Positions 2,397-51,851 of a stretch of DNA of 64,000 nt are shown piece after piece. Origin of the DNA: Coleofasciculus chthonoplastes F2-STO-03. GTDB lineage: Bacteria; Cyanobacteriota; Cyanobacteriia; Cyanobacteriales; Coleofasciculaceae. The stretch covers positions 15,240 through 79,239 of the forward strand of contig JAVJWO010000108.1 of the NCBI GenBank assembly GCA_040222015.1. The letters are read 5' to 3'. The notes under the pieces were generated by a model. The model was given only the letters and a program-made list of their open reading frames with translations, did not search any database and was not told the DNA's origin. Position 1 is the stretch's first letter, and each line of letters opens with the position of its first letter. Position numbers and translations under genes: made by a program.

Positions 2397-2416
2397 TTGT
2401 CAATTTATGGGTTTCA

Positions 2417-7699: not shown

Positions 7700-7714
7700 A
7701 TTTCGGTGGATTTG

Positions 7715-32959: not shown

Positions 32960-33072
32960 AAGGGTAATAATTTGACCAAAATCCGGGGTGTAGGGGCGGG
33001 TTTAGGGATTTTAATAGCGGTGTAACCAATAACGTTTGTAGCAAAACCCGCCCAGTAGTATTATTTCCTATA

Positions 33073-33109
33073 GTTTCAGTCCCCTTGCGGGGATTTAGTT
33101 GGTGGAAAC
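33073..33109 (-). CRISPR. Orphan single CRISPR repeat preceded by a leader-like sequence
   Basis: Minus strand GTTTCCACCAACTAAATCCCCGCAAGGGGACTGAAAC matches the main repeat at 32/37; adjacent aaaatcctcgctaaaatcctc...gtttcagatggtgga parallels the main leader end aaaatcctctgtagaatcctc...gttttagatggcggg. Confidence 0.8.
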
Positions 33110-33428
33110 TCCACCATCTGAAACATCGGCTGCACGAGGATTTTAGCGAGGATTTTCGTAAGTCGAGGTTCTGCTGCTGATATTCAATCATACAGGAAAC
33201 TTGCCCTTAAGCCAAACAATTTAGCTCCCTTGGCGGGATGCGGTTGTCGATGCGCTCCCCCTAGTGAGTGGGAAGACAGGCGTTCCGTCAGGTGATGAAG
33301 GGGTTTTAGTTGAGGATTTCGGGTAGCGCGATCGCATCTGGGTAATTTTCCAGGATTGACGGTGGAGCCGCGTTTAGGGTAGCTTGTCATAACTTATAAT
33401 AAAAATGTACTCTACTAGAGTAATTTCG

Positions 33429-34025: not shown

Positions 34026-34419
34026 TTTATCAATTAATTTGGGTGATATTTTCCTTTTGGACACGGGGGGTCAAAAAAATCATTGGTATATTGCGATCGC
34101 TCCCCTTTCTTCCGATGAATTTTTGTTTGTAAATATATCAACTTGGTATGAAGGCAGTAGTGATAATGATGGAACTTGTATCTTAAAACCAGCGGCAAGA
34201 ATGCCTGGATTTATTAATCGAAAATCATTTCTTGCCTATAAATTTGCGAGGTCTTACACCGCCGAGCAACTGGAAAAACTCATCGTGCCAAATTCTGACC
34301 TTCCCTATGATACGCTTGAGCCTCAGATTTTAAGACGTGTTCAAAGAGAGAGTCTAAATGCTAGAAACTTAAAGAAAAAGTATCTTAATGCTCTAAGGGC
34401 TTATCTGGGAGTTTCTTAA
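34018..34419 (+). CDS. Putative toxin (PemK/MazF-like fold) paired with the Panacea antitoxin
   Basis: Overlaps the antitoxin stop; GDIFLL...HWYIAI...VNIST...TCIL...FINRKSF pattern. Confidence 0.6.
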   Translation: MADLSINLGDIFLLDTGGQKNHWYIAIAPLSSDEFLFVNISTWYEGSSDNDGTCILKPAARMPGFINRKSFLAYKFARSYTAEQLEKLIVPNSDLPYDTLEPQILRRVQRESLNARNLKKKYLNALRAYLGVS

Positions 34420-34604
34420 GTTACTTTACTTCACCGACGTGCGCCCAATTTCAACAGCAGGCGCCCATTTTAACAGTAAAATCTATTCCACAATTTTAGC
34501 TGTGTCAGTCCAGTAGGGTGGGTTAGGTAGATATTTCATGAGGAAAATCACCCTTTAATGTAATATTTCCGCCGTAACCCACCAACAATTAGACGGGTAG
34601 AACT

Positions 34605-34724
34605 GTAAGACGTCCCCTTGCGGGGAAGAGGTGAAAGACGACTCAACAGTTGAGTCAACTTCTAGAGGCGTGTTTCCATCCCCTTGCGGGGTAAGTTTAT
34701 CAAGCGATTACCGCTTGCGGAAAC
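34605..34724 (-). CRISPR. Degenerate repeat-spacer-repeat mini-array (crRNA-like regulatory RNA candidate)
   Basis: Repeat 1 (34724-34672) GTTTCCGC-AAGCGGTAATCGCTTGAT-AAACTTACCCCGCAAGGGGATGGAAAC; 32-nt spacer (34671-34640); repeat 2 (34639-34605) GTCTTTCACCTCTTCCCCGCAAGGGGACGTCTTAC; both keep the CCCC-GCAA-GGGG hairpin of the main repeat. Confidence 0.8.
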
Positions 34725-34745
34725 TTAACTCCTCTAGCCAAATCA

Positions 34746-34774
34746 AACATAACCGTACTGGGTCGAAAAGTCAA
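34746..34774 (-). promoter_or_regulatory. Sigma70-type promoter for the mini-array
   Basis: Minus strand TTGACT-N17-TATGTT; predicted TSS about 15 nt before the first mini-array repeat. Confidence 0.65.
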
Positions 34775-34807
34775 GTTGGTATCAACTCAAAACAGCAGTA
34801 TGAATTC

Positions 34808-34840
34808 GGGGAGAGTGGTAGCATGTCAGCGACTCTCCCC
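34808..34840. terminator. Stem-loop between the 133-aa gene and the mini-array promoter
   Basis: GGGGAGAGT...ACTCTCCCC inverted repeat; no clear U tract. Confidence 0.45.
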
Positions 34841-34880
34841 AGTGAGGTAGGATGCTTACCCTGATATCATCCAGATATGT

Positions 34881-35282
34881 CTAGTCGTTTTTATCAGACT
34901 CCGGCTTAACTTGCTCCACATCGAAATTGTTGACCAACAAGCCAAGGCGGTTACTCATATCCAAGTTCTGCCAAAGTTGGACACCGTTATTAGCGCCAAC
35001 GATGAACGCTGAGACAATTGCCGCCAGTATCTGAAATTTCCGCAAATGCTTCCAAGAACAAAAGGATTTTTTAGGTTGGAAATTTGCGTGGTTTTGCGTC
35101 TGCTTCGAGTGTTTCAGGTTTTCTTGGAACTTATCCGTCAAACCCAGCGGGTGTAGATTATTGTCCGGTACGTCATCTTGGAGCGTAAAGTCATGACCAT
35201 CCGGTGATGGGTGTGCAGATAAATCTAATTCGGCTAAACCTGCTACAGGGTCAGCCACCAATGACTTCGAGTCTTTTTGCAT
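34881..35282 (-). CDS. Hypothetical single-TM protein; its 5' UTR is matched by the mini-array spacer
   Basis: 133 aa; disordered N-terminus, basic patch, hydrophobic FQILAAIVSAFIVG segment; AGGT ~10 nt upstream of the ATG. Confidence 0.65.
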   Translation of the reverse strand: MQKDSKSLVADPVAGLAELDLSAHPSPDGHDFTLQDDVPDNNLHPLGLTDKFQENLKHSKQTQNHANFQPKKSFCSWKHLRKFQILAAIVSAFIVGANNGVQLWQNLDMSNRLGLLVNNFDVEQVKPESDKND

Positions 35283-35469
35283 TGTTCGTTACCTATTGTT
35301 AAATACGCCAGCTAGAAGTTGCTTGCAACAGTTGAGTCGGTTTTGAGTGCTTATTCAGACATCTTTCCTCCCGAATATGTATCAATTTTTACCACCTCAT
35401 GGTTTTGACCATGAGCTTACCCTCTATCATAATCTCAGACCAATCTCAATGACCACCAACAAAGTTATT

Positions 35470-36087
35470 TCAACCAACGCATTTAACCTTTTTGAGACTT
35501 CCATCCTCCTTGAGAACCATAATCTCAACCTTAATCATTTGCCCTTCAGATAGCAATTTCGCCTTTTTTGGCTCTTTTTCGGTTAATTTAATCGTTTCCA
35601 GAATCGTATATGTTACCTTATTTCCCTTAACGCCTGTAACCGTGGCGTCCAATATTTGACCCACTTTAAAATCATGAGTGCTAACCACCTCAGCAATTTC
35701 AGCTTGACGCGCTGACTCGACAACAGGGGCGCTAATTTCGCCAACGGGTTCAGCGTTTTGGTAATAACGCATTAGCCGATAAGACCAGCCTAAAATATGT
35801 AGCATCACTGGGGGATTATCTTGATAGGCTTTTAGGTATTGATTACAAGCATTGTCAATACTTTGGTAATAGTCAGACGTTCGCTTACTATGTCCAATTT
35901 GTCTGCCATTTCTGACCAAGGTTTTGAGATAATCAAACAACTTTTTTCCGTCTTGGTTGGCGTAATTGCGAAGATAGGCGATCGCTTTTCCTAGTTCATT
36001 GGCGTCTGTATCTGCTTTGACTAGAGTTTGTGCGATCGCGTGGGCAATTTTCCACTCATTTTCGGTTAATTCTTCTGTTATTACCAT
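35470..36087 (-). CDS. CRISPR-associated protein: helical N-terminal domain plus C-terminal S1/OB-fold domain
   Basis: Last gene of the cas run; C-terminal FKVGQILDATVTGVKGNKVTY...LSEGQMIKVEI is S1-like; start at MVITEE, because the longer ORF begins in a REP palindrome. Confidence 0.65.
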   Translation of the reverse strand: MVITEELTENEWKIAHAIAQTLVKADTDANELGKAIAYLRNYANQDGKKLFDYLKTLVRNGRQIGHSKRTSDYYQSIDNACNQYLKAYQDNPPVMLHILGWSYRLMRYYQNAEPVGEISAPVVESARQAEIAEVVSTHDFKVGQILDATVTGVKGNKVTYTILETIKLTEKEPKKAKLLSEGQMIKVEIMVLKEDGSLKKVKCVG

Positions 36088-36151
36088 AGAGATTTTATCC
36101 TTGGTTCTTCCAGGTTGTAGAGACGTTGCATGCAACGTCTCTACAATTGTG

Positions 36152-37177
36152 CTAATACATTCCCTCCGGCGGTTCTCTCTCAGTAGGATATCCCAATACC
36201 TTGACTAATTCCTGCAATGGCTGGGATTGCACCAATTCTCGATGCGCCGCCTGAATCGCCTGTTGGATCAACTGTTGCAAGGGTTTTCCAGTAAGGGGTT
36301 GGGATTGAGTTTGATAGGATAAATAGCGATCGCGTAAATTATCGACAGGTTCTAAACTCCTTACCTCAACTGTCATTGTCCCCATCCCAATCGGTTTACC
36401 GCCACCCACTTTAAGTGCAATCGCATTCAGTTTATCTTGTCCGAGTACAATCAGTAGGGTTCCCAGTTCCCCTTTGGTTAAGTTTCGATAGGGTAATGAT
36501 GTGGTAAATACAAAAGTTTTCGCCGCTTGTTGTACTGATATTCCCTGGTGTTGCCCTTTATCTACAGCCCGAATTGTGTGATAATAAAACTTGCGCCCAG
36601 CGACCTTTCCCTGGTTAAAATAACCTGGGTATTCATCAGGACGAGGACGATAGAGAGATGGCATAAATCCGGGACGAAATTCAGTTGATTCACACTCAGC
36701 ATCCCTAAACTGAATTAACCCTTGCCAATTCAGCGCCCCAAATACCCGACAAGCGGGACAAAGTTGGGTTTTATCACGACATTCCTGATAGCCTGGGGGG
36801 ATTTGATTCGGTTTTGCTTTCGTTTTACACAAACAGCTACGGGTAATCGCTTCATAGGTGGAACGTACCACACCTTTAAGCGAACTACCGGGAATCATTA
36901 ACTGTCCCTGGCTTCCCTGAATCATCGTTTTAATCAAGGGAATCGACTTTTGTCCCACATCCGTTCCCAGGGCGACAACTCCCGTAGAAACGTGTAATCC
37001 GGTTTGAACCGTTAATTTTAACTGTAACGTTCCATGGACGCAATCGCGATAATATTGATCGTGTCCTTTAGGATGTTGTAATTGCGGCTTTTCTTTCGGT
37101 AAAGGGATGAGATGATAGGGTTTTGGGGCAGTAATTTGGGATGGTTGAGGGCGGGGAAGGGGTTTATCATAACTCAT
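36152..37177 (-). CDS. cas7: Type III-D RAMP (Cas7 group) protein
   Basis: IPGSSLKGVVRSTYEAIT, CPACRVFG, GRKFYYH, G-rich loop KVGGGKPIGMG. Confidence 0.88.
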   Translation of the reverse strand: MSYDKPLPRPQPSQITAPKPYHLIPLPKEKPQLQHPKGHDQYYRDCVHGTLQLKLTVQTGLHVSTGVVALGTDVGQKSIPLIKTMIQGSQGQLMIPGSSLKGVVRSTYEAITRSCLCKTKAKPNQIPPGYQECRDKTQLCPACRVFGALNWQGLIQFRDAECESTEFRPGFMPSLYRPRPDEYPGYFNQGKVAGRKFYYHTIRAVDKGQHQGISVQQAAKTFVFTTSLPYRNLTKGELGTLLIVLGQDKLNAIALKVGGGKPIGMGTMTVEVRSLEPVDNLRDRYLSYQTQSQPLTGKPLQQLIQQAIQAAHRELVQSQPLQELVKVLGYPTEREPPEGMY

Positions 37178-37683
37178 TTTGGCATATCCACAGTTAAGGC
37201 AACAAAATGCACCATTGCAGTAGGTTTAGCGATAAAATAACGCTGGGCTAGTTTCGGCTGATTGGGGGAAGTATTTCTCACATCCAGACTTTGAGGATAA
37301 ATTAGCGATCGCGGGAATCTGGTTTCATTGGTAAGATACCCATAAGCTGGGCGTTGTTCAGTTTTCCAATAGGATTTATTCTCAGATTTTCTGGGATATT
37401 CTGTATCATCAATAATCGATTTAAAGCCCAGAACCTCACCCGTATTCGATAACACAAGTACGCTATAACCCTCATTTTGCCATTTCCAGCGCAATTCGCG
37501 ATCGCAATTAAACATCTGTCCTTCAGGAGAGGGAAAATTATCCGGTAATTTGTCCACAATTCCACTCACTTGATGACTCCAACGCAGAAAATAATAACTC
37601 GGCGCTGTAGCTTGCTGTTGCACTAATTCTCTTAACTCTGTTTCAGTGAGTAACTCTTGATAAACACCAACAAAAGGACTCAT
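37174..37683 (-). CDS. csx19: Csx19-like type III-D subunit
   Basis: Position between RAMP genes; EGQMFNCDRELRW and QRYF motifs. Confidence 0.7.
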   Translation of the reverse strand: MSPFVGVYQELLTETELRELVQQQATAPSYYFLRWSHQVSGIVDKLPDNFPSPEGQMFNCDRELRWKWQNEGYSVLVLSNTGEVLGFKSIIDDTEYPRKSENKSYWKTEQRPAYGYLTNETRFPRSLIYPQSLDVRNTSPNQPKLAQRYFIAKPTAMVHFVALTVDMPK

Positions 37684-37701
37684 GCTGCACCTGCTTCTAC
37701 T

Positions 37702-37839
37702 GTGACTTTTTCCCGGAAGTCTAAAAACCTGAATCGGGGCGGGTTTAATTCCTTATGGTTAACCCAAAAGATAGTAGTGAAACCCGCCCCTACACAATCC
37801 TCACGTTACGCCACATACCCTGAAAAATCTGCTTCTACT
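37702..37839. mobile_element. REP/MITE-like insertion with an 11-bp flanking direct repeat
   Basis: CTGCTTCTACT at 37691-37701 and 37829-37839; the interior is near-identical to ~40895-40997. Confidence 0.7.
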
Positions 37840-38765
37840 CTCTGACGCCAAGCCCGAACCGCCCGCATCAATAAATCCTGAACTTGTTCCTTTCCTTGCC
37901 AATTTAACTGTACTCCAAACCCCAGCGCCATTGATTCCGCCCGCACAGGAGTATCTTGCATATCATTAGCTGGAAAACCATAGCGTTCTCGTTCCTCCGC
38001 CTCCAGAAACATACCAGCACCCAAAAGTTGATTAGCTTGCCATTCTCCCCCACCTCCTAAACTACAAATCTGTTGATTTTCAATAACACAACCCGGATAT
38101 TGGACAACCGCCTGGTTTAATTTTACGTCCACAATTCCCAAGCCGCGAGACTTCGCAAACCCCAAGCCAAACCATCCCTCATCCAAATCGCGCAACACTA
38201 AACCAATTAATCCCAATTGGGCTAACGAGAAGTTTTTAAGATGGAGTTTAGTACGAAACTCCCCAGCCGTACAAACTTGATAATTAAATGGTCCCACCGC
38301 CACCGAACCAAACACGCGGTCAATCGCCACACCATTCCGTTCTTCCAATTTCACAGGTTGAGATTCAACCGGATAAGCATCCTCAATTCTAATCCGACTA
38401 GCAATTGACTTATTGCCAAACATTTGATCAGTGAAGGAAGATAAACGGTAAATATCTGCTGAGTCATCTTTCAGATAGTCATAGTTATCAGTTAACGGAT
38501 CATTTGCCCAAAGCACATCCGGATTATCAGAATTACGATTATCGCGTCCCACCGTTCTCACAATTCGTTCAGCATGAGCGCGGATTGCCCCTTTTAAAGA
38601 ACTTCCCGGTAAATAAACCGAACGCCCTCCCCCATGATACGTTTCCACAAATTCCATATCCGGCTTCGTCGGATCAGCGCCTTCTCGCCCTGACTTAATC
38701 AGAATCGGACCACAAGGAACTAAACTAAAATCAATCGTACATTGATTAACCAATCGTTTGTGCAT
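37806..38765 (-). CDS. cas7: Type III-D RAMP (Csx7/Cas7 group)
   Basis: YLPGSSLKGAIRAHAERI, ERNGVAIDR, GLGFAKSRGLG. Confidence 0.88.
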   Translation of the reverse strand: MHKRLVNQCTIDFSLVPCGPILIKSGREGADPTKPDMEFVETYHGGGRSVYLPGSSLKGAIRAHAERIVRTVGRDNRNSDNPDVLWANDPLTDNYDYLKDDSADIYRLSSFTDQMFGNKSIASRIRIEDAYPVESQPVKLEERNGVAIDRVFGSVAVGPFNYQVCTAGEFRTKLHLKNFSLAQLGLIGLVLRDLDEGWFGLGFAKSRGLGIVDVKLNQAVVQYPGCVIENQQICSLGGGGEWQANQLLGAGMFLEAEERERYGFPANDMQDTPVRAESMALGFGVQLNWQGKEQVQDLLMRAVRAWRQRVEADFSGYVA

Positions 38766-38795
38766 AATCTAAATTTGTCTGAGACTACCTGTCGT

Positions 38796-39416
38796 TTAAG
38801 CCGCAACTAAGGTATCTAGTTGGGCTTCACAATGTTGAAAAATCGAGTTAACAACTGCAAAGAGTTGATCAAGATTTTCAATAATGTATGGAGTCGTATG
38901 TTTGGTAAATACATTGCCTTCTAGTTTACCAAACTGCCAGACTTGCCCATTAGAAACAATTCCAAATACAGTAATCTGAGGATATTGATTCAGGCGTTGA
39001 GCCGCCACCATTTCGGCGGCACACTGACCCCACCCTTCCTTAAACTTATCTTGTTTTGCCTCAACCAGTAAGAAATAGGGTTGGTCAAAAACCACCTTTC
39101 CCAGGGGAGAGCGTTTCGCTAAAATATACTCTGGAAAACCCGAAAGGGTCTCATCGTAATTTAGGGATTCGTGACTCCATAAAATAAACTTGCTTGAATA
39201 ACATTTCCAGACTTGTTTCAGTACCGGATAAATGAGATTCTCACAAATAGCAAACTCTGAATTATTCACCACCCCTTCCCGCATCACCATCTGGAGATCT
39301 TCGCGGAAATAGTCCGGAATATCAAAGGGAGATTCAACAATAAAATTCCCTTCTGTATAACTAATCTGAAACTCCTGGATAACATCCGCAATACTTGTGT
39401 ACTTGCTAAATGACAT
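38796..39416 (-). CDS. PD-(D/E)XK-like hypothetical protein inserted in the cas operon
   Basis: LVEAKQDKFKEGWGQCAAEM, FGIVSNGQVWQFGKL; start at MSFSKY after GAGGTG, because the ORF-track extension lies in repeats. Confidence 0.75.
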   Translation of the reverse strand: MSFSKYTSIADVIQEFQISYTEGNFIVESPFDIPDYFREDLQMVMREGVVNNSEFAICENLIYPVLKQVWKCYSSKFILWSHESLNYDETLSGFPEYILAKRSPLGKVVFDQPYFLLVEAKQDKFKEGWGQCAAEMVAAQRLNQYPQITVFGIVSNGQVWQFGKLEGNVFTKHTTPYIIENLDQLFAVVNSIFQHCEAQLDTLVAA

Positions 39417-39482
39417 AATCACCTCACAACATTTCGTTCGTAGTTGCCCGTAGGGTGCGTTAGCGGAGCGTAACGCACCGTT

Positions 39483-39915
39483 GAACAAGGGCAGGTTTTG
39501 TTGTTCAATTATCGGTAACCCGCCAGATTGAATCTCTAAACCCACCCCTACGATAGGGTATCGCATTTCCTGTGAATAAGGGCGGGTTTTGTTGTTCAAT
39601 TATCGATAACCAGCCAAAATCAATCCCTAAACCCGCCCCTACGATAGGGTATCTGCTTTCCTGCGAATAAGGGCGGGTTTTGTTGCTCAGGTGTTGGTGA
39701 AAAGCGAGATTAAGTCCCTAAACCCGCCCCTACGATAGGGTATCTGCTTTCCTGTGAACAAGGGCGGGTTTTGTTGTTCATTTATCGGTAACCCGCCAGA
39801 TTGAATCTCTAAACCCACCCCTACGATAGGGTATCGCATTTCCTGTGAACAAGGGCGGGTTTTGTTGTTCATTTATTGGTAACCCGCCAAGTTAAATCCC
39901 TAAACCCGCCCCTAC
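39483..39915. repeat. Five tandem ~91-bp units built on REP family B (AAGGGCGGGTTTT...AAACCCGCCCCTAC)
   Basis: Units start at about 39483, 39574, 39665, 39756 and 39847; single family-B copies also at ~6798, 18710, 21254, 25437, 29243, 32989, 40914, 57978 and 63626. Confidence 0.9.
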
Positions 39916-39932
39916 AATAAATTGATACATCA

Positions 39933-40808
39933 TCACCTCGTATTCACCTCAGCATTCTGATTTTTCCGATTTTCCAGATAGCCAATCAAAGATTGTACCC
40001 ACTGGTCTTTATACCCTTTACCATCCTCATAAGCTGAACCCTCATTATTAACCATTTTCTTAAGATAATTCAGCAACTTATCTGCATCAATATTATCCGG
40101 TTTATTTTTATCTCTGGCGTCAAACCAATCCATCCGCTCAACCTCCAATTTAACCACACCCAAACCCCGCGAACGCCCTCCCCCCAGTGGAATTTGTTCC
40201 GTCTCAAACTGATGTAACCCAATCATTAATAATCCCAACTCCCAATCCTCAGCATTTTCCACCACCGCCTTAAACGCAAAAGGAGTTCCCGCTGGAACCA
40301 CTTGGAAATCATACAATTTCCCATCAGCCGCCGTTTCCGTATCTCTATCAATCGCCACCCCATCCCGTTCTTGATATTGACCAAACCAATACTCTGAGAT
40401 AACCATCAAATCTCGAACTTGAAACTTACTCGCCAGCCAAGGTGAACCAAATAGATGAGAAATTAAATCAGTCTGATTTAAAATAGCCTCAGTTAGCGCC
40501 GTATCCGTAGGATATCGCTCTTTCAATTGCTTCATTTCCTGAGCCGTAATCGCCCACTCCTCCTCTACCGCCGGATTAGCCACCAAAGTCCGCTCCCCGC
40601 CCAGGATACCACGGAGGAAGCTTTCTAAGCGCGATCGCAACGCCCCCTTAAAACTAGCGCCCGGTATCAACGGTTTACCCAACGCATCTTTAATCACCGG
40701 TAAATCCGAACCAATTGGTTCCGTGGAACGCCCTGCGCTAATTCTTAGTGCCGTTACCGTCATCAACTTCCCGCTAATTTCCAAACGATTCTTAAAACAA
40801 TCAAACAT
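39933..40808 (-). CDS. csx7: CRISPR RAMP protein Csx7 (Cas7 group)
   Basis: PLIPGASFKGALRS, ERDGVAIDRDT, LYDFQVVP, LGGGRSRGLG. Confidence 0.9.
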   Translation of the reverse strand: MFDCFKNRLEISGKLMTVTALRISAGRSTEPIGSDLPVIKDALGKPLIPGASFKGALRSRLESFLRGILGGERTLVANPAVEEEWAITAQEMKQLKERYPTDTALTEAILNQTDLISHLFGSPWLASKFQVRDLMVISEYWFGQYQERDGVAIDRDTETAADGKLYDFQVVPAGTPFAFKAVVENAEDWELGLLMIGLHQFETEQIPLGGGRSRGLGVVKLEVERMDWFDARDKNKPDNIDADKLLNYLKKMVNNEGSAYEDGKGYKDQWVQSLIGYLENRKNQNAEVNTR

Positions 40809-41014
40809 AAGATTATCTCCAAGTTCGTATTTACGCTGTCTTCGCCCTAAACCTTCGCCTCCCCACCACCAACCCTAACTTTAACTTTTCACAGGAAATC
40901 TAAAAACCTGCGTCGGGGCGGGTTTAGTCACATCCGGATGCAACCGAAAAGATAGTAGTGAAACCCGCCCCTACACAATCGTTGCGCCACATACCATAAA
41001 AACTAAAACCCTAA

Positions 41015-41584
41015 CTAACTCAGACTCAACCAACTAAACACATCTTGAACCGATAACCGCAACTCTCCCAAAGAACTAAGCACAGACAAACTATCTTGAT
41101 TTTGCTTAATTTCCGGCTGTTTTCCTGGTTTAAAAATAATTATTGAACGCTCCTGCGGATCAATAAACCAACCCAGTGCTGTGCCATGATTCAGACAAAA
41201 CAGAATATTATCAATCACACGGGTTGAACTTTGTTCCGGTGACAAGATTTCAATCGTCCAGTCTGGGGCAATTTCAAAAGTATTCTCAATTTCCCCATTC
41301 CCATCAACTGGAATACGTTCCCAGGAAAAGACAGTTATATCTGGCACCAAAGAACGCCCACCAAAGGTACAGCGCAACTCAGTAAACGCACGCGCTATTT
41401 TCTTAGGGATAGCGACTTGATTGATAGCCGGAGCTAAAAACGTTTGGATAGCGCTGTGTTTTCCTTTAGGCATTGGTTTTTGGTAGATTTGACCATCGAT
41501 ATATTCACTTGCGGGTTCTGTTTCTGGCAATTGCAGGAAATCAGCTAGAGAAATTTGGGTAGAAGACGGAAGCGGTATAATCAT
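41015..41584 (-). CDS. Uma2 family endonuclease
   Basis: FLQLPETEPASEYIDG..QKPMP..KHS...VPDI...APDWTIEILSPEQS. Confidence 0.9.
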   Translation of the reverse strand: MIIPLPSSTQISLADFLQLPETEPASEYIDGQIYQKPMPKGKHSAIQTFLAPAINQVAIPKKIARAFTELRCTFGGRSLVPDITVFSWERIPVDGNGEIENTFEIAPDWTIEILSPEQSSTRVIDNILFCLNHGTALGWFIDPQERSIIIFKPGKQPEIKQNQDSLSVLSSLGELRLSVQDVFSWLSLS

Positions 41585-41592
41585 AGTAAACT

Positions 41593-42780
41593 TTAATTTT
41601 TTATTTCTTTGCCTTCGACATACTTATGCGTTCCGTAATGTCTGAGTATTAACGTTCCGTTAGATGATTTACAGCTAACACGAAACTGTCTTCCTACATA
41701 AAAATGATCAACGCCCTCTTTGTCTTTTGTTCCTTTATAGGCATAATAACTCACTGGTTTAGCCAAGGCTCTCGTATCACCATTGGATTCTTCAAGTAAG
41801 AATGAAGCTTTAGCTATTGTTTCTTGTAGTTTAACTTTATCTTTTGGATTTTTAATTTTTTTATAGTCTTCCATAAATGAACCATCGTAATGAATTCTAA
41901 GAAAGCCATCTAGTAGCTTTTGTGACAATAAATTATCTTTGCACTGATTCCAAACAAGTTGTCCCCAGTTAGAAAGAGTCATCTTTCCATCAATCTCTGC
42001 TACCATCGCTTCTGGAACTTCTTTCGTTTCTGATGGAGACAAACCAGCTCCAGCGTCCAGCAATGCTAGAGTAACTACATGGTCTTCAAGTCGAGAATAA
42101 TCTACAGTAATGGGCAAGCGAGGTATAGTAATTAAGTTTGAGTTTTCCCCTTCAAACACATAAATGATTTTATCCGCATAAAACATACCGATTGTATTCA
42201 TACAACCTTGTAAGGCTTTAAATCCACCGACTAAATTAAAATAGATGTCATAGTTTTGTTGTCGATAATTTTCCACCCGTCCTTCAAGCCATTCAATCAA
42301 ATCGTCAATTCCTTGATTAAAATTATGGGTACTTTCTGTTGAAAGTTTGTCAGGTGTGTATACTTCAACAGAATTAACTTTGCCATGCAAGAAATCTTTA
42401 AGAATTTTTGCCGCCTCTTGCCCCTGCGCTGTATCTGTGGTTACTAAAATGTGAGCATCTAGCTTGCCCTTTTCTAATTGCTCATCATATAATCCATAAA
42501 TACCATTCAGTTCAGCACTAGCTTCTCGAATTTCCAATGTATTACCAGTATCTAATTCCTGTTCAGCCCTATTTTTTAATTTCGCAATTTTATCTGCGAG
42601 TTTCGAGTCGGATTTATTAACCTGATCATATTGTTTAACCCGATCATGAGTTAGATTCGCATACTTTTGCAATTCTTCCTTCCAGCCTGAGTCACATTCA
42701 TCATCGATTTGATTGGTTAGCAAACTTGTTCCAACCGTTGAAATTACTAAACGAGGCATAGTTTTCATAGAGTCATTCAT
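41593..42780 (-). CDS. CARF (APE2256/TIGR02619-type)-wHTH-RelE effector, Cami1-like
   Basis: STVGTSLL, SAELNG, TDT, NLVGGFK, IYVFE (CARF); LSNWGQLVW (wHTH); C-terminal DHFYVGRQFRVSCK...LILRHYGTH (RelE-like). Confidence 0.8.
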   Translation of the reverse strand: MNDSMKTMPRLVISTVGTSLLTNQIDDECDSGWKEELQKYANLTHDRVKQYDQVNKSDSKLADKIAKLKNRAEQELDTGNTLEIREASAELNGIYGLYDEQLEKGKLDAHILVTTDTAQGQEAAKILKDFLHGKVNSVEVYTPDKLSTESTHNFNQGIDDLIEWLEGRVENYRQQNYDIYFNLVGGFKALQGCMNTIGMFYADKIIYVFEGENSNLITIPRLPITVDYSRLEDHVVTLALLDAGAGLSPSETKEVPEAMVAEIDGKMTLSNWGQLVWNQCKDNLLSQKLLDGFLRIHYDGSFMEDYKKIKNPKDKVKLQETIAKASFLLEESNGDTRALAKPVSYYAYKGTKDKEGVDHFYVGRQFRVSCKSSNGTLILRHYGTHKYVEGKEIKN

Positions 42781-42791
42781 TGTTTTAGTCT

Positions 42792-43310
42792 TTAGTAGTT
42801 ATTTTTACTAGCTTTACTCTCTCCTACCAGAGCTGTATGTTCTCTTGCCAAATATCCTAGATACAGGCGAGTTAGTTTTAGATGAATATTTTTGATAAAT
42901 TGGGCTTTATTTTTAGTATCCGTCAGATACTGTTCTAATGGATTTTCTTTGGGGATTGGTCGTCTCACTCTATCCAGTATTTCTTGTGCATCCTGCTTTA
43001 AACTGTCAATCTGTTCAACAACTTCAGTCGCAAAGAGCTTTTTATCTTTAGAGACTTTCCAAATTCGACTCGCTCCACTACGACCCACTTGATAACGAAT
43101 ATAGTTTTTTATAGCTTCTATTGAAGCATTAGCTTCAGTAGCAGCAGCAAGAACATTTTTGAAAGGAGATTTTGAATCTTCACTGGCAATTGAAAATTTT
43201 TTGGATATGGCTTTAACTTTGAGGATAACATCATCCATTTGTCTACTAATTTCCACCTCAGTTCTTAACGTCAGTTGTTCTTGGAGCAATGGATCAAGTA
43301 ATTTCTCCAT
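42792..43310 (-). CDS. Small subunit Cas11/Csm2-like
   Basis: All-helical 172 aa, IKNYIRYQVGR motif, downstream of csx10. Confidence 0.7.
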   Translation of the reverse strand: MEKLLDPLLQEQLTLRTEVEISRQMDDVILKVKAISKKFSIASEDSKSPFKNVLAAATEANASIEAIKNYIRYQVGRSGASRIWKVSKDKKLFATEVVEQIDSLKQDAQEILDRVRRPIPKENPLEQYLTDTKNKAQFIKNIHLKLTRLYLGYLAREHTALVGESKASKNNY

Positions 43311-43312
43311 GT

Positions 43313-44581
43313 CTAAACTGCCTCCTCACGCAAAACTAAATGAAATTCATTGCAAATTTGCACTTGACCAAAGCCCTCGCAAGTGCGCTCGCCTACTCCC
43401 TTCACCTCCAAATAGTTTAACCTCTCCATCCAGAGATTGGGTTGAATCGTACTGAAAAGATAAACAGCTCCCTTATTAGTAATCAACTCTACATCTTTCA
43501 TCAATCCCCATGCAGAATTCCAACCAGATAGGTAGTCATAGCTGCTGTAGGCAGCGTGTAGTTGTAGGGATGAATCAGTAACACCTGTAAAATACTGTAG
43601 CATTTCTGGTGAAATTACCGTGGTACGTCGCCAGTTTTCATTCAGAATCGTATCTGACTGTAAATCAATAGTAAAATACGTGCGATTTTGCAGTAAATCT
43701 TGTTGTGGCTGACCAAAAATTTGCCAATCCTGCCAACGCTTATGTAGTTTGTCCTGAAACATCTTGATTCGCTCCTCGACAGATGGCTTAACGGCTGTGG
43801 TATCTACAGGTGACTTAGCCGTGATTTTTACTTTTCCTAATCCCCGTGAAGTTGAACCACCCAAGCGGAAATCTTGCTGATAATTAGTGATAAAGCGTTG
43901 TAAAGATTCGGCTAGTTCATCGGCAACTAGGATCGCTCCTGTATAAATCACAGGCTTTTCTCTCTTACCTGCAATTTTAGACTCGTTTAAAACTTCAATA
44001 CTATAGAGTACTCCTTCTTCTGTAGTGGCTCGGCGTCGATTGATGCCAGCTCGTGTTAGTAGGCGAGTATTGGCAGAATGGCTGTGGTACTTGTTACCAA
44101 TTTTACTGTAAAATTCAGTAAAAGTATCCACTCTATCACCATCTTGAGGACAAGTCGGGTCATATAAATGACCATAGCCATCAGCACAAAAGCGATCGAT
44201 TAAGGTGTCAAAAACACCATTATGATCAGAATCGTTAGGTTTTGATTTAAAACCGGGCTGAGTTTTGGAACTTAGAGCCGTAGCAGGTACAACCCAAACA
44301 TCTGACTGAACTCTAGTTTGTTTTTGTCCCTCAATGGTTGCTGGATACGCATTGTGGAAAATTGCTGGATTGTCGCCTATAAATAAAGCTTGAAAGTCAC
44401 CTCCATTGTCTGCCAAATTAGCTGACTGATGTCCTGACTGTCGTAGAATCTGAGCAGCCATCGCCCCCCGAATTACTGAACCGGGAATATAGTCTCCGGC
44501 TTCACTCACTGAACCCCCTGGTTTTTTCCGCCCAATGGCTAAAGGAGATAACGCTTTAATTTCCAGTTGAATGCGCTTCAT
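43313..44581 (-). CDS. csx10: Type III-D RAMP Csx10 (Cas5 group)
   Basis: LSPLAIG, YIPGSVIRGAMA, GINRRR, LGGSTSRGLG, GVGERTCEGFG. Confidence 0.88.
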   Translation of the reverse strand: MKRIQLEIKALSPLAIGRKKPGGSVSEAGDYIPGSVIRGAMAAQILRQSGHQSANLADNGGDFQALFIGDNPAIFHNAYPATIEGQKQTRVQSDVWVVPATALSSKTQPGFKSKPNDSDHNGVFDTLIDRFCADGYGHLYDPTCPQDGDRVDTFTEFYSKIGNKYHSHSANTRLLTRAGINRRRATTEEGVLYSIEVLNESKIAGKREKPVIYTGAILVADELAESLQRFITNYQQDFRLGGSTSRGLGKVKITAKSPVDTTAVKPSVEERIKMFQDKLHKRWQDWQIFGQPQQDLLQNRTYFTIDLQSDTILNENWRRTTVISPEMLQYFTGVTDSSLQLHAAYSSYDYLSGWNSAWGLMKDVELITNKGAVYLFSTIQPNLWMERLNYLEVKGVGERTCEGFGQVQICNEFHLVLREEAV

Positions 44582-45308
44582 TTGCTCCTCCTTTGGCTAA
44601 ATAATTCCACACTGACTCATCCACCTGAATTGAGGGAAGTTCCCACTTCAACCATCCTAATCCTACTGATTTAGAACCCCCCAAAGCATTAATATGGTGT
44701 AACCCAGCTAAAATTAAGGCTTTGGTAGAAGCCGGACAATTAGGCTGAAGGTGAATGTCGCCAGTAAACTTAAGCTGAATATTAGCGGGTGAAGTTTCTA
44801 GGAAATAGAGTTTTTTCTCTTCAGCCGTATGACGACGACGATTAATCGTCACACCTGGGCGGAGAACTTCTGAGGGAAGATTATCGGGTTCTTCTTGGCA
44901 AATTAAGTCATCAAAAATGACTCGTGACGGTAAGGCGGGATTGCCAAAAATCTGACAAATTAAACAATGATATCGGTTATCTCCTGCTACTCGATAATCC
45001 TCGTCTCGTTGAAAACGCCTCGCCTCATTGTCGGGAAAATCTGCACGCTGGGGACACATAGTTTGAGGATTAGGGGCTTGACAAATTGCCCACCCTAACC
45101 CCCGTGCTAATTTCTCACATTCATGACGCAAACGCCCTTTAAGTTGAGACGCTGGAATTAGGAGTTTGTTGTCCGCAGTACGCACAATTGGCTTATCGGC
45201 GAGAGAACCGGAAGAACCTCCTGCACCCACGCATAAAGCAGTATCAATAACAGCCGTTAGGGAGATTGTTTCGACTGGATTTGATAATAAGTCTTGCAGA
45301 TAAATCAT
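44556..45308 (-). CDS. csm3: RAMP Csm3/Cas7
   Basis: TALCVGAG, IPASQLKGRLR, CLICQIFG, RPGVTINR, LGGSKSVGLG. Confidence 0.88.
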   Translation of the reverse strand: MIYLQDLLSNPVETISLTAVIDTALCVGAGGSSGSLADKPIVRTADNKLLIPASQLKGRLRHECEKLARGLGWAICQAPNPQTMCPQRADFPDNEARRFQRDEDYRVAGDNRYHCLICQIFGNPALPSRVIFDDLICQEEPDNLPSEVLRPGVTINRRRHTAEEKKLYFLETSPANIQLKFTGDIHLQPNCPASTKALILAGLHHINALGGSKSVGLGWLKWELPSIQVDESVWNYLAKGGANEAHSTGN

Positions 45309-47668
45309 ATTAATCGCGCCCCTGTCTGGCTAGGTTGTTCAGTGGTTTCAATAATAAAAGGATAAAGTTCGACTAATTCCCGCCAGATAGTTTCATAGGT
45401 AGTCGTACCATCCTTTTCCGGTAACGACATCCAGGGTGATAAGTTACCACTATTAGTCTTGGCATCACACCAGGCTTTTTCAAAATACTCCTCCAACAAT
45501 TTTTGGTTTTCCAGTTCCAAGCGAACGCGGAAATAGCGATAATTGAGGATAGCGGTGTGTTTACCTTGTTCGAGTAAACTGCGGATTTGATAAAGTTGCG
45601 ATCGCGGAAATTCTGACTGCTTTAATTTCTCCCCTGTTTCAATCAATCCGCCGAGTTCGTGTAAGGTGTAGGGTGCGCCATAAAGTTTCAACTTGGGTTT
45701 GCCTTTTTCCTGCTTAGTTAAAGCCTCTTGGCGAAAGGCTTCAATATTGGAGGAAATCATCGTTACCGACTTCAGCGTGAGAAAGTCAACAGTTCCGCCG
45801 TGATAGTCATAGTCTTTTTTTAACTGCTTTGCCTTCTTCTTGGCTGATTTAAGTAATTGACTTGTTAGATTTTCGGCATAATAAATTGGTGTTTGATAAG
45901 CCGTAATTAGAACCCCCGTTGACATACTCAGTTTACATTGTGAAGGTTTGACAGATATCTGCCCTTGGTATCGGTGACAGTCTTGAGAACGTGAGATTAT
46001 TTCTGGATCAGTAATTCGATAGTCTTCTTTCCCTTGTATCTTTTCGCCTTCCAGAAGAATTCGCTCAAACTCCTCGCCAATAGTTTGAGCAATTGCCAGG
46101 GCTTTATCGGCTGGTACAATTAACATGACATCATCCCCACCAATTGTGAGGATTTCAAAAGGATGAATAATCGATCCATTCCGATGTTGATTGTCTCCAG
46201 TTAAACCGTTTAATTGATGAGGGTTAAGATGTCGTCCGAGGGCGTGGTAAACCGATTCCTCTGTGGCTGTAAAGATATCTCGGCTAAATCGGCGACAATC
46301 TTGGGGGGTTTTGAGTTCTTTCTGAATATAACCTCCTATGTTATTGCCATCAGCATAAATATAGCCAACAAAACCATTTCCAGCATTGCCAATTTCGGTG
46401 AGCGATCGCGCTTCGCCAATTTTCTGTTTTGAGATGTCTTGATAATAGCGATCTCGATAGTGACTTTTTTCGATAAAACGCCTAAATTTAACCACCCAGC
46501 TTTCCAGATACCCTGAATTCCATAATGTTTTAACTTGACCAAATTGCCATTTCCAATCCGAATTTTTTGTCCACCATTTCTGACTGCGACTCCCTTCCCC
46601 TTTCGTTCGTTGCCCAACAATACGCTTACGGGCTAAAGCATCAGAAAACCAAGGTTCATCCGGAAGACGACTCCCAGGGGCAATAGCTAGGCGATGTTCG
46701 ACGTCATCCCGCAATAAATAAGGATGGGTTTCAAACATAGGCGGATAGCGACGGCTGGGGCGTTGGCTATCGGGTAAGTTATTACCGTTGCGTCGCTGCT
46801 GAAATAAAGCCGCCAGTTTCCCCGTTATTTCGTTAAAATTCTTGCGATTTTCAAATAAGTATTTCCAGGGTTGACCGTTTTTAAGTTGACCAAAGTAGGC
46901 GCTTGTAATCGGATTTGTTTGCCGTTTATTATCCTGTAAATACCAGTCTAACCATTTGCTTTGTTCAATCGGATTGTCAAGTAATCCAAATCGCAGTTCC
47001 AGCAATCTGAAACTTTCTCCTACAGCACAAGAATTAGCGGTCAAGGTTTCTTCTGTATAGCGTTTTTCAATTAAATTGACCAAATCCGGGACAAAGGCTG
47101 TCGGGCAAAAGGCTAAAATGTTAGCCCCGGTTGAGTAAATCACTAACTCAGGAATCAGTGCGTCCCATAACGGGTGTAGTGTTTTATCTTTGTGTTGTAA
47201 GTCTCGCCTAACCCTTTGGCAATATTGTCTGGCTCGGTAACATTCGGGAAAGTCCTCTGGCAATTCTTCACATTTGAAAAAGGCAGGTAAATCTATTAAA
47301 TTAATTCGATCCAGTAATGCTGATGCGCCCCGAATTTCGGGAAGTTTGGCTGATTCAAATACATAGCCTTTAATCTTTGTTGCACCGCCGTAGACTAAAC
47401 CGATTCGGGTGGTTTGCTCCCACAAATTGGCATAGTTATCCTGAAGATCAGTAATTTTATCGGGAAAATAGTCTTGGGAAATCTCTTGTAGTTGCCGCAC
47501 CGTTTGTAGTAAGCACTTTAGTGCTTCTGTATCCGGAACATCTTTCCCTTGACGCAGCGCCTCTCGCATTTGCTGCAAGATACTCAAATCAAACTGCGGT
47601 TCACGCCCCTCGCCCCAAGCGAGACACCAGGCGATTCCAATGGTTAGGAGGGGTAGAGAATGGGTCAT
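45305..47668 (-). CDS. cas10: Cas10 large subunit (type III-D) with intact Palm/GGDD and no apparent HD domain
   Basis: IKGYVFES..L.EIRGAS, YADGNNIG, TIGGDDVML, ENLTSQLLKSAK; short N-terminus lacking an HD motif. Confidence 0.92.
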   Translation of the reverse strand: MTHSLPLLTIGIAWCLAWGEGREPQFDLSILQQMREALRQGKDVPDTEALKCLLQTVRQLQEISQDYFPDKITDLQDNYANLWEQTTRIGLVYGGATKIKGYVFESAKLPEIRGASALLDRINLIDLPAFFKCEELPEDFPECYRARQYCQRVRRDLQHKDKTLHPLWDALIPELVIYSTGANILAFCPTAFVPDLVNLIEKRYTEETLTANSCAVGESFRLLELRFGLLDNPIEQSKWLDWYLQDNKRQTNPITSAYFGQLKNGQPWKYLFENRKNFNEITGKLAALFQQRRNGNNLPDSQRPSRRYPPMFETHPYLLRDDVEHRLAIAPGSRLPDEPWFSDALARKRIVGQRTKGEGSRSQKWWTKNSDWKWQFGQVKTLWNSGYLESWVVKFRRFIEKSHYRDRYYQDISKQKIGEARSLTEIGNAGNGFVGYIYADGNNIGGYIQKELKTPQDCRRFSRDIFTATEESVYHALGRHLNPHQLNGLTGDNQHRNGSIIHPFEILTIGGDDVMLIVPADKALAIAQTIGEEFERILLEGEKIQGKEDYRITDPEIISRSQDCHRYQGQISVKPSQCKLSMSTGVLITAYQTPIYYAENLTSQLLKSAKKKAKQLKKDYDYHGGTVDFLTLKSVTMISSNIEAFRQEALTKQEKGKPKLKLYGAPYTLHELGGLIETGEKLKQSEFPRSQLYQIRSLLEQGKHTAILNYRYFRVRLELENQKLLEEYFEKAWCDAKTNSGNLSPWMSLPEKDGTTTYETIWRELVELYPFIIETTEQPSQTGARLI

Positions 47669-48707: not shown

Positions 48708-49646
48708 GTTTCCGCTAACTTACTCCCCGCAAGGGGATTGAAACTCAACTTCTTCTAGTGTTTTCAAAAAATAAAGTATAGTTTCCGCTAACTTACTCCC
48801 CGCAAGGGGATTGAAACTTAATTTTACCAGAGTCACTATAATTACGTACTAAAAGTTTCCGCTAACTTACTCCCCGCAAGGGGATTGAAACACAATCAAG
48901 ATGATGCTTTGCCACGATAGATGCTGCGGATGTTTCCGCTAACTTACTCCCCGCAAGGGGATTGAAACAACAGTTTCAGTTCATCCTCAGATACAGGTAT
49001 GGTAGTTTCCGCTAACTTACTCCCCGCAAGGGGATTGAAACTACCGTTTTTTTGCATCTCCAAGATATCCGTACTGCTGTAGTTTCCGCTAACTTACTCC
49101 CCGCAAGGGGATTGAAACGTGCCGGATCGAAAACGATAGGCATGATCGGCTTATGTTTCCGCTAACTTACTCCCCGCAAGGGGATTGAAACTTAAACTTT
49201 ATTTTACCTCCAGTCTCCAAAGATAAAGTTTCCGCTAACTTACTCCCCGCAAGGGGATTGAAACGAATAGTTGGCGAATTAGTCCAGTAAATAGGGGCGG
49301 GAGTTTCCGCTAACTTACTCCCCGCAAGGGGATTGAAACAATCGAACCCATTACAATCATGAGCAGATTCGAGGGTTTCCGCTAACTTACTCCCCGCAAG
49401 GGGATTGAAACGCTCTATATCGTTTGAGGGCGATCGCCCTATTTGGGTTTCCGCTAACTTACTCCCCGCAAGGGGATTGAAACACTACGGATGTTTGAGT
49501 TTCAGGCTCGTTTAAAACTTGTTTCCGCTAACTTACTCCCCGCAAGGGGATTGAAACAATTTCACCCTACAGCAAGACCTAGACATCCGCAGGCTTAGCG
49601 GAGTTAGTAGCTTGACAAACTCACTTCCCCCAAAGGGGATGAAAAC
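48708..49646 (+). CRISPR. CRISPR array: 12 identical 37-bp repeats GTTTCCGCTAACTTACTCCCCGCAAGGGGATTGAAAC, 11 spacers of 35-40 nt, plus a ~52-nt last spacer and a degenerate terminal repeat
   Basis: Repeats start at 48708, 48781, 48855, 48932, 49005, 49082, 49155, 49228, 49303, 49375, 49447 and 49521; degenerate copy ~49610-49646. Confidence 0.98.
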
Positions 49647-49806
49647 TCTGGTATCAGTAAGGTGGGCAATGCCCACCCTACAACTTGAAAAATTTACCCG
49701 GTATGCTGGATAAGCCCAGGAATAGAGGAAGGCGATCGCACGGATTCGGTAAAAAGATGATAACCTTTTTATTTTCGGGGATTACGGGGAGAATAGGGGT
49801 GTAACC

Positions 49807-50726: not shown

Positions 50727-51851
50727 ATGGCACCCCGCAAACGCCGCCAAACCCAACCCCCTCCATCCCGCCTTCCTTGGGCGCCGGATACAGAATTAGT
50801 CGGACTTGTCTTAGAATTAACCGCCAACGCCCCAGACTCCCTCTATACTCAATACACCGTCGGACTCCACGCCTGGTTCTTAGATCAAGTTCGCCAAACT
50901 AACCCCCAACTCTCCGCCTATCTCCATGATGGTCAATCTGAGAAACCCTTCACCCTCTCCCGCTTAGACGGAGACTTCCTCACCTCTGGAAAAACCCTCA
51001 AACTCAAACCCGATACAACCTACCGTTGGTACATCACCGCCCTTTACCAACCCCTAACCCAATGGCTCGCCGAATGGGTTCATCACCTGCCAGATATGAT
51101 TAAGTTACGCGGTGCGGTGCTAAACATTAGCGGTTGGCACATTGCTTTAGCACCAACCACGTATCCTAACTTATCTACCCCAACCCCCACCCTACCCCAA
51201 TCCCTAAGCCTCAGCTTCCTTACCCCCACCAGCTTTCGCCGCAAGGGACACCATTTCCCCTTACCGGTTCCCAGGAATCTATTCCACAGCTATTTGCGGC
51301 GCTGGAATGATTTTTCTGATCAACCCTTTGATCAAACCGCCTTTTTAGACTGGATAGAGGAAAATGTAGTGATTCAGCGTCACCGTTTAGAATCGATGAA
51401 AGTCGCAGCCGGAAAGAAAGGAGTCGTCACCGGATTCACAGGTGCGATCGCGTTAGGACTGGACTCAGGTGCCAGCCAACACCCAGAATTTAGCCAATTA
51501 TTCCATACCTTAACCCAATTTGCCCCCTACTGCGGCACCGGACACAAAACCCCCTTTGGTTTAGGACAAACTCGCCTCGGCTGGTTATCCCCTGAAACCC
51601 CCGCCCTCCCCTCCATGGAAACCCTATTAGCCGAACGCATTAGCGAATTAACCCAACAATTTCTCGCCCAACGCCAGCGCCAGGGGGGAAATCGGGCGCA
51701 AGATATCGCCGAAACCTGGGCAACCATCTTAGCACGACGAGAAATGGGCGAATCCTTAAACGCGATCGCAGATGATCTAGAGATGCGTTATCAAACCGTT
51801 AAAACTTACGCCAAATTAGCCCGCCGTGCCATATTGAATAATCACAGATAA
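50727..51851 (+). CDS. cas6: CRISPR endoribonuclease Cas6 with C-terminal HTH extension
   Basis: LHAWFLD, LHDGQSEKPFTLS, FLTPTSFR, G-loop CGTGHKTPFGLGQ. Confidence 0.93.
   Translation: MAPRKRRQTQPPPSRLPWAPDTELVGLVLELTANAPDSLYTQYTVGLHAWFLDQVRQTNPQLSAYLHDGQSEKPFTLSRLDGDFLTSGKTLKLKPDTTYRWYITALYQPLTQWLAEWVHHLPDMIKLRGAVLNISGWHIALAPTTYPNLSTPTPTLPQSLSLSFLTPTSFRRKGHHFPLPVPRNLFHSYLRRWNDFSDQPFDQTAFLDWIEENVVIQRHRLESMKVAAGKKGVVTGFTGAIALGLDSGASQHPEFSQLFHTLTQFAPYCGTGHKTPFGLGQTRLGWLSPETPALPSMETLLAERISELTQQFLAQRQRQGGNRAQDIAETWATILARREMGESLNAIADDLEMRYQTVKTYAKLARRAILNNHR

Follow-up and report, generated by a model that had tools for sequence, protein, structure and literature searches.

In the cyanobacterium Coleofasciculus chthonoplastes F2-STO-03, a type III-D operon of the CRISPR (short palindromic repeats, clustered and regularly interspaced) kind is followed, 3' of its final gene csx21 and on the same strand, by a gene for a protein of 133 amino acids (aa), a promoter-like site and a mini-array with one spacer, and we consider it likely that these parts form a toxin-silencing module, which resembles CreTA (CRISPR-regulated toxin-antitoxin) and CrePA and acts on messenger RNA through the type III-D effector. 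The window analyzed here is the whole stretch of 64,000 nucleotides (nt) taken from contig JAVJWO010000108.1 of assembly GCA_040222015.1, and all positions refer to it unless another locus is named. The original paper on CreTA is reportedly about Haloarcula. The operon is type III-D, as judged from Csx10 (TIGR02674, 449.9 bits versus a cut-off of 177.3 in a profile search) together with Csx7, Csx19 and Csx21. An initial annotation, made from the letters of the sequence, had proposed an RNA-level, CreTA-like module of this type, and its sequence-level parts are now supported by conservation, by co-variation of guide and target, by toxin-family cargo genes, by a six-base period in the pairing and by pairing of the tag.

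The elements which the initial annotation had read beside the operon were all recovered (Table 1). A consensus scan finds the promoter TTGACT-N17-TATGTT, and at 34724-34612 (minus strand) two repeats with the hairpin of the main-array repeat, here R1 and R2, enclose a single 32-nt spacer, which we call the guide. The hairpin of R1, CCCCGCAAGGGG, is identical to that of the main array, and its 8-nt tag, ATGGAAAC, is one base apart from the main-array tag ATTGAAAC. Like the repeats of the main array, R1 places an 8-nt 5' tag after the hairpin, which is the form of a type III CRISPR RNA (crRNA), and the order R1-guide-R2 with a promoter of its own directly after the III-D operon is that of a crRNA gene of CreTA or CrePA. 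The motif CWCTTCCCCGCAAGGGGA of R2 serves as an ordinary array repeat in other cyanobacteria. Of 16 single-sequence folds, about half give the insert of R1 as a clear hairpin, its bases not being the same from locus to locus, and the others are ambiguous. With RNAalifold on 16 sequences, ACUAGA of the leader pairs with UCUAGU of the guide; this stem was rejected as a covariation-supported one, its pairs being nearly invariant with a double change in one of 18 pairs.

Realignment of the guide with 35305-35338 gives the same result as claimed earlier, namely 28 of 34 columns complementary with two gaps, and the 3' end of the site on the mRNA strand lies 22 nt before the ATG at 35282. The complementary site thus stands on the mRNA sense strand before the ATG of the 133-aa gene, hereafter the cargo gene, in agreement with the earlier view that the predicted crRNA is antisense to the leader of the cargo mRNA. 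Against 2 kb of upstream sequence the guide reaches an RNA-RNA alignment score of 38, while dinucleotide shuffles of the guide give 24.3 +/- 2.4 with a maximum of 35, and none of 300 reaches 38 (the sequence slice of this test was offset by one base).

Regarding the distribution of the element, the mini-array with its guide was found among 61 relatives searched in three genomes of the same genus and in three other genera. We also scanned the pattern GGGGATRGAAACACGCCTC against one genome per species for 185,579 species; the pattern fixes the first seven guide bases, and classes with other guides are missed by design. The scan gave 23 loci, of which two are chance matches and 21 carry the mini-array, in Coleofasciculus, other Coleofasciculaceae, Microcoleus, Microseira, Lyngbya PCC 8106, Phormidium and further metagenome-assembled genomes. 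The promoter TTGACT-N17-TAnnnT occupies the same place in 20 of 20 non-redundant loci, and the leader with CTAGAG, the R1 hairpin, the tag (ATGGAAAC or ATAGAAAC) and R2 are likewise kept in all 20, where the guide starts with the pattern-fixed ACGCCTC and continues with TAG except in L047 (ATG). In all 19 loci with enough flank a homologue of csx21 precedes the element on the same strand, at no more than about 1.3 kb; the remaining two are at contig edges. With 21 further cyanobacterial loci in which this element comes after csx21, the mini-array is, judged by genome comparison, a conserved gene for a crRNA-like RNA and not a decayed array.

Within the genus, the alignment of four Coleofasciculus genomes has variable columns at 1/38 in the target with its flank, 0/18 in the 18 nt before the ATG, 0/21 in the mini-array leader and 1/53 in R1, compared with 48/402 in the coding sequence of the cargo and 19/106 in an intergenic stretch; the pattern indicates that the noncoding parts of the module are under purifying selection, tighter than that on the coding sequence. 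One genome of this comparison carries insertions of 150 and 101 nt. Two same-genus genomes keep csx21 with a decayed cassette, in which the toxin gene and the mini-array are both lost, and in G001 the tandem targets are kept, with the toxin gene deleted, the downstream gene truncated and the mini-array absent. Decayed cassettes of two same-genus genomes were seen in L016 (reverse strand, after csx21), where the tandem targets are kept and the toxin gene is deleted, and in L013 (1480-2300); in both, the gene in the helix-turn-helix (HTH) position is truncated at a shared junction sequence, which occurs inverted just upstream of the mini-array in G003.

The initial annotation had suggested that co-varying pairs of spacer and untranslated region (UTR) be sought in related cyanobacterial loci, and such pairs exist, in three specificity classes. 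A complementary site on the mRNA-sense strand, ending 22-25 nt before the cargo start codon, is present at the source locus and in 17 of the 21 loci; two of the four others are at contig edges and two lack the toxin gene (L032, L050). Eight loci have a second, tandem site just upstream of the target. The first 10 nt of the guide are common to the genera, and the rest falls into three classes (Coleofasciculus, L037 and a main class) which match their own targets. When the variable part of each guide is paired with all targets, the Coleofasciculus class scores 30-38 with cognate targets and at most 25 across classes, with 30 versus at most 24 for the source locus, and L037 scores 44 versus at most 25. 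Guides of the main class hardly vary, and the highest scores there do not belong to cognate pairs, so that the co-variation holds between classes only, and within Coleofasciculus there is one compensatory change of a pair from G:C to U:A. The partial complementarity known from CreTA and CrePA is found here as a conserved and co-varying pairing to the control region of the adjacent gene.

The unpaired positions of the guide carry a further signal. In 14 non-redundant alignments of proximal sites, which leave out L034 and L051 as identical to the source locus and L043 and L048 as identical to L039, 35 of 73 guide positions at multiples of six are unpaired, versus 50 of 400 elsewhere. For the distal sites the counts are 27/48 versus 21/242, across 11 loci of which three are without a convincing distal site. 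A typical unpaired set is 4, 5, 12, 18, 24 and 30, and the source locus is unpaired at 6, 17, 18 and 24, three of the four falling on multiples of six (p = 0.008). Since phase 3 is without enrichment, codon wobble does not account for the pattern. According to PMC11127173, class 1 complexes flip out one guide base in six. The mismatches here have this six-base period, which is that of a Cas7 backbone, and they match the 5-nt segments with every sixth position free that mark a type III crRNA, although one class (L037) is without enrichment.

Beside the guide, tag positions -2 to -4 pair with the 3' flank of the target in each of the 14 sites, and the pairing extends to as many as seven tag bases. 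Close to the tag the duplex is interrupted: the main class has positions 4-5 unpaired, and the source locus has position 6 unpaired and a bulge. The 3' half of the guide shows the best pairing. The same review reports that Cas7 cleavage is independent of the flank, that Cas10 activation requires about 5 nt of tag:anti-tag mismatch plus a complementary stretch of about 12 nt adjoining the tag, and that Cas7 binding is served by the crRNA's 3' end (PMC11127173). With a tag-paired flank and broken tag-proximal pairing, the sites therefore fit the description "bind or cut, but do not signal". Taken together, the six-base period and the tag pairing suggest, at the level of sequence, a type III effector that reads RNA.

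What stands behind the target in relatives is mostly a toxin gene. Among eight loci scanned, the gene belongs to Gp49/DUF891 in six (E-values from 1e-20 to 1e-22), to YoeB with a Phd-type antitoxin in one and to no family in one (L037), so that toxin families make up the cargo in 7/8. Gp49/DUF891 is a HigB-like toxin family of the RelE/ParE fold and occupies elsewhere the place of the 133-aa cargo. In most loci a gene of about 101 aa follows the Gp49 gene in the antitoxin position, with weak HTH matches below the Pfam cut-offs. Homologues of the 133-aa cargo, whose product would play the toxin in the source genome, are confined to Coleofasciculus (six matches), and the cargo of L037 appears by eye to be a distant, frameshifted relative of it. 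Protein-atlas structure matches to the 133-aa cargo were dropped as long-helix look-alikes under the naming bar. A type II HigBA-like pair was not found at the source locus, where the cargo has neither a family nor a partner gene.

Widening the search by the R2 motif was given up, as most matches were plain arrays with this ordinary cyanobacterial repeat, and it surfaced other kinds of mini-array, two of which stand as independent cases and had their conservation looked at by one search. With the tag ATTGAAGT, a mini-array at 1434-1506 (plus strand) of L053 and at 8514-8966 (minus strand) of L082 lies beside the type III-A csm operon (411-8424, minus strand, in L082) of a heterocystous cyanobacterium. 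It is divergent, and its guide complements the sense strand of the gene for a 146-aa single-helix protein just upstream of cas10. The site, in the 5' UTR, stops 22 nt short of the ATG, and the duplex takes in six tag bases, is perfect over guide positions 14-37 and is interrupted over positions 1-13. Another divergent mini-array, near 1505-1576 of L084 (reverse strand) with the tag ATTGAAGC, pairs with codons 14-27 of its neighbour and by six tag bases. By alignment, whether the layout is tandem or divergent, the guide is predicted to pair with the neighbouring gene's sense strand. In L052 and L054 (reverse strand, near 1390-1520) we also observed a pair of repeats, with the tags ATGGAAAC and ATGCAAAG, about 100 nt apart around a conserved insert that is not spacer-like; it is possibly another repeat-derived RNA gene. 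The type III-A operon in L082 contains, after cas10 and before csm2 or in the reverse order, a HigA-family antitoxin gene (5190-5462, minus strand; TIGR02607, 52 bits versus a cut-off of 47.7) and a gene of 110 aa (5810-6142, minus strand).

In RNA libraries, Logan contigs of four metatranscriptome runs (X9, X16, X18, X20) from a relative about 94% identical cover the region from 34602/34613 to 35411-35593. Contig breaks at 35417 were rejected as a transcription start, as they coincide with the point where same-genus genomes diverge.

On this evidence we propose the following course of events. The mini-array would be transcribed from its own promoter and cut by Cas6 after the R1 hairpin, which would yield AUGGAAAC plus the guide, and this crRNA-like RNA would be loaded into the type III-D effector complex. 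The complex would then bind the neighbouring cargo mRNA at its leader, with the guide's 3' part, which pairs well, acting as seed; Cas7 subunits would cut the leader, and/or the Cas10-Cas5 end, lying over the 22 nt before the ATG, would block the ribosome. Because the flank pairs with the tag and the tag-proximal pairing is interrupted, Cas10 would stay off, and the cargo would be silenced without an immune alarm. Loss or inhibition of the cas genes, of Cas6 or of the mini-array would lead to expression of the cargo, and the mini-array element would thus serve type III-D as a guard or addiction module, with the logic of CreTA and CrePA at the RNA level. As a wider statement, which we hold only a little more probable than its opposite, filamentous cyanobacteria would possess a natural type III mRNA-silencing circuit, in which a fixed guide sends a III-D effector (in the other lineage III-A) to the leader of a toxin-type gene, the built-in anti-tag and the interrupted tag-proximal pairing allow binding or cutting of the mRNA with Cas10 signalling avoided, and the toxin is freed when the effector is lost or inhibited.

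There are alternatives to be weighed. The mini-array RNA, perhaps trimmed by Cas6, might pair with the cargo leader without any Cas complex, like the RNA of a type I toxin-antitoxin system; the complementarity is indeed extended and next to the ribosome-binding region, the mini-array has its own promoter and loading into a complex is inferred only. However, pairing of naked RNA leaves unexplained why positions at multiples of six are unpaired and why no class has lost the full repeat hairpin, the 8-nt tag or the flank complementary to the tag, and the element always follows a type III operon, so that antisense action of this sort seems improbable. A smaller chance is given to a CreR-like autoregulation of cas genes at the RNA level, or to 3'-end processing, in which the target sits in read-through cas mRNA and its cleavage tunes cas expression or uncouples the cargo. 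A terminator-like site is missing between csx21 and the target, contigs from RNA libraries bridge csx21, target, cargo and mini-array, and in the III-A case, where the cargo is directly upstream of cas10 on the same strand, this explanation may hold. At the III-D locus, though, the target is downstream of all cas genes and cutting it should hardly lower Cas synthesis, while the fixed distance of 22-25 nt to the cargo start codon and the toxin-family cargo point to the cargo as the regulated gene, and a -10-like box with a 5' hairpin precedes the target in all classes.

Repression at the DNA level by a type I Cascade borrowing the crRNA, as in classical CreTA and CreR, would also fit unpaired positions at every sixth base, which type I complexes are likewise described to leave in PMC11127173, and 8-nt tags, which type I uses too. 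We regard it as very unlikely, for no cas3 exceeds the family cut-off in the source genome, which is 99.99% complete (best 43 bits versus 102.45), the element goes with type III operons, all five classes, two of them divergent, have a guide that complements the mRNA sense strand, and the flank resembles the repeat ("self") rather than a protospacer-adjacent motif (PAM). Lastly, the element might be a neutral relic, either a decaying array end whose spacer is self-targeting by accident or a mobile cassette's terminal inverted repeats, the latter having been named in the initial annotation as an outcome that would overturn its proposal. R2 is degenerate, guide and site form an inverted repeat around a gene, the cargo differs between loci, and rearrangements and decayed copies occur. 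Yet the mini-array region is single copy in the source genome and holds a fixed place after csx21, it is kept with its own promoter across at least five genera, the constraint is stronger than on the flanking coding sequence, guide and target co-vary, and only one arm lies between CRISPR repeats; given conservation and copy number, the reading as relic or mobile element is largely refuted, and we leave it the slightest chance among those considered.

Nevertheless, several points weigh against silencing of the cargo mRNA by the type III-D effector. R1 has a stem with one pair less than the main repeat, and the tag is off by one base. In L037 the six-base enrichment is absent (1/7); the loci are related, so that the pooled six-base counts and their p-values overstate independence, and a count at the level of classes gives 11/21 (p about 2e-4), with two of these classes being tandem paralogues. 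The duplex has indels, two target bulges at the source locus and -1 or +2 nt near position 12 at other loci, which a type III complex may or may not tolerate. An inverted duplication of tag and guide could have left the tag-complementary flank behind as a relic. In the interval between csx21 and the target no terminator was found, and the target may also sit in read-through cas mRNA. The metatranscriptome contigs carry neither strand nor ends and may include DNA carry-over, so that they tell of presence in RNA libraries only. As for the cargo, the 133-aa protein was placed in no family by Pfam, NCBIfam, PADLOC, a homology search or the protein atlas, and the probable protein antitoxin encoded in most loci makes the need of an RNA guard questionable.

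Table 1. Features of the type III-D locus and its mini-array module (positions in the window).
Feature	Position	Strand	Details
Mini-array promoter TTGACT-N17-TATGTT	34746..34774	-	consensus scan
Mini-array transcript leader	34725..34745	-	CTAGAGG (34737-34731) complementary to guide positions 4-10
R1, full repeat with stem-loop insert of ~19 nt	34672..34724	-	GTTTCC 34724-34719, insert 34718-34699, AACTTAC 34698-34692
R1, 3' part		-	hairpin CCCCGCAAGGGG 34691-34680, 8-nt tag ATGGAAAC 34679-34672
Guide ("spacer"), 32 nt, ACGCCTCTAGAAGTTGACTCAACTGTTGAGTC	34640..34671	-	
R2, degenerate terminal repeat GTCTTTCACCTCTTCCCCGCAAGGGGAC	34612..34639	-	GTCTTTCACCTCTT + hairpin + AC
Cargo gene, 133 aa (P0001)	34881..35282	-	hydrophilic N-terminal part, one hydrophobic helix at residues ~83-104, short tail
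Target-to-ATG remainder, 18 nt	35283..35300	-	part of 22-nt stretch 35304-35283; holds presumed ribosome-binding region
Target in cargo mRNA leader	35301..35338	-	site 35338-35305 + 3' flank AUUU 35304-35301 pairing with tag positions -2 to -4
Cargo upstream leader	35351..35455	-	promoter-like TGGTCA-N18-TATGAT 35455-35426
Hairpin of cargo upstream leader, GCTCATGGT-caaa-ACCATGAGG	35416-35395	-	GGGAG also in leader
Upstream open reading frame of 3 codons, ATGTCTGAATAA, in cargo leader	35362-35351	-	
Type III-D operon	35470..47668	-	cas10, csx7, csx10, cas11-like, CARF protein, Uma2 insert, csx7, PD-(D/E)xK, cas7, csx19, cas7-like, csx21
csx21	35470-36135	-	final operon gene
cas10	45305-47668	-	GGDD motif present
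csx3	47971-48309		
Main CRISPR array	48708..49650	+	12 full repeats + degenerate end; repeat GTTTCCGCTAACTTACTCCCCGCAAGGGGATTGAAAC
cas6	50727..51851	+	TIGR01877, 93.2 bits vs cut-off 58.65

As to the surroundings of the module, the hairpin of the cargo leader has homologues with other stem bases in other loci, which also hold an ATG-led frame at the equivalent place. Within the cas operon, five tandem units of 91 nt (39479-39923) overlap the 5' part of the PD-(D/E)xK-type open reading frame 38796-39599, and a copy related to them lies at 18701-18781; the Uma2-family endonuclease gene inserted inside the operon is at 41015-41584 (minus strand). Between the main array and cas6 there is an Imm30 immunity-protein gene (50214-50663, plus strand). 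On the other side of the mini-array, an orphan leader with a single repeat of a third variant, GTTTCCACCAACTAAATCCCCGCAAGGGGACTGAAAC, occupies 33071-33107 (minus strand) with a leader-like stretch to about 33160; same-genus genomes have two repeats at the equivalent place, and the orphan looks like the remnant of a second array. A SocA/Panacea-domain antitoxin gene (33405-34025, plus strand) overlaps the start of another 133-aa gene without family (34018-34419, plus strand), convergent with the mini-array, and the two probably form a toxin-antitoxin pair of their own that was inserted in the stretch from the orphan repeat to the mini-array. A short hairpin-type repeat of a GC-rich palindrome family, with many copies in the genus, is at 34461-34520, and its summed contig depth in the metatranscriptome runs is up to about 55,000 versus about 80-120 nearby.

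If it is true that the type III-D effector silences the cargo mRNA, the module would be the first type III, post-transcriptional counterpart of CreTA and CrePA, and toxin release upon loss or inhibition of the effector would guard the CRISPR system or abort infection by anti-CRISPR phages. Cells would then use RNA-targeting CRISPR also for gene control and self-preservation, evolution would have used the tag:anti-tag rule to separate silencing from immune signalling, and the natural pattern of mismatches and bulges would indicate what a type III complex tolerates. The module moreover offers a testable design for signal-free RNA knock-down with Csm-type complexes, as well as a candidate explanation for the upkeep of type III loci in genomes.

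In the literature searched, with subscription journals outside its scope, no regulatory crRNA-like guide for type III was found, CreTA, CreR, CrePA and crlRNA being of type I and V-A only, whose effectors bind DNA. The accessible parts of the sources describe CreTA for type I-B and I-F (PMC9458426, PMC10097628, PMC12737573), and in that of a review from December 2025 all cases listed are of type I or V-A. The accessible text of Shah et al. gives Csx21 as III-D-associated with function unknown and has no toxin-antitoxin pairs among type III accessories. Shmakov et al. surveyed mini-arrays in 2023 and, in the portion of their text available, report them near type III loci in 10-14% of systems, without conserved positions or targets and probably as degraded repeats (10.1101/2023.03.03.530964); the cyanobacterial family differs from these in that position and guide are conserved and the target co-varies.

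Compared with the known systems, as far as the accessible parts of the cited sources describe them, the module is like CreTA in its degenerate mini-array beside cas genes, its partial complementarity to an adjacent toxic gene and its dependence, here proposed, on a Cas effector. In CreTA, however, Cascade binds promoter DNA by a PAM and the toxin is a small RNA, whereas the cyanobacterial module is of type III-D with a sense-strand site in an mRNA leader, a tag-pairing flank and a protein gene as cargo. CrePA silences a protein toxin by a crRNA-like RNA with an effector and frees it on effector inhibition, as the present module would do, but it acts on a promoter via DNA-binding effectors and has a KilA-N toxin (10.1101/2024.01.05.574328; PMC12737573), while the cyanobacterial cargo is Gp49/HigB-like, YoeB or a single-helix protein and its control would act on RNA. 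PAM-flanked promoter DNA bound by a type I or V-A effector, which belongs to CreTA and CrePA, was not found at this III-D locus, where no cas3 of the genome exceeds the cut-off, the site is on the sense strand and the flank is tag-like. With CreR and the crlRNAs the module shares guides derived from mini-arrays in a regulatory, non-immune role (10.1101/2023.03.10.532045; 10.1101/2024.12.27.630466), although those are of type I and V-A with promoter targets, and type III comes up only in passing (10.1101/2024.12.27.630466). The discrimination of self from non-self in type III is alike in that pairing of tag and flank prevents Cas10 activation while Cas7 cleavage continues; it is known as a guard against antisense transcripts of the array (PMC11127173), whereas here it would be a regulatory design for a host mRNA.

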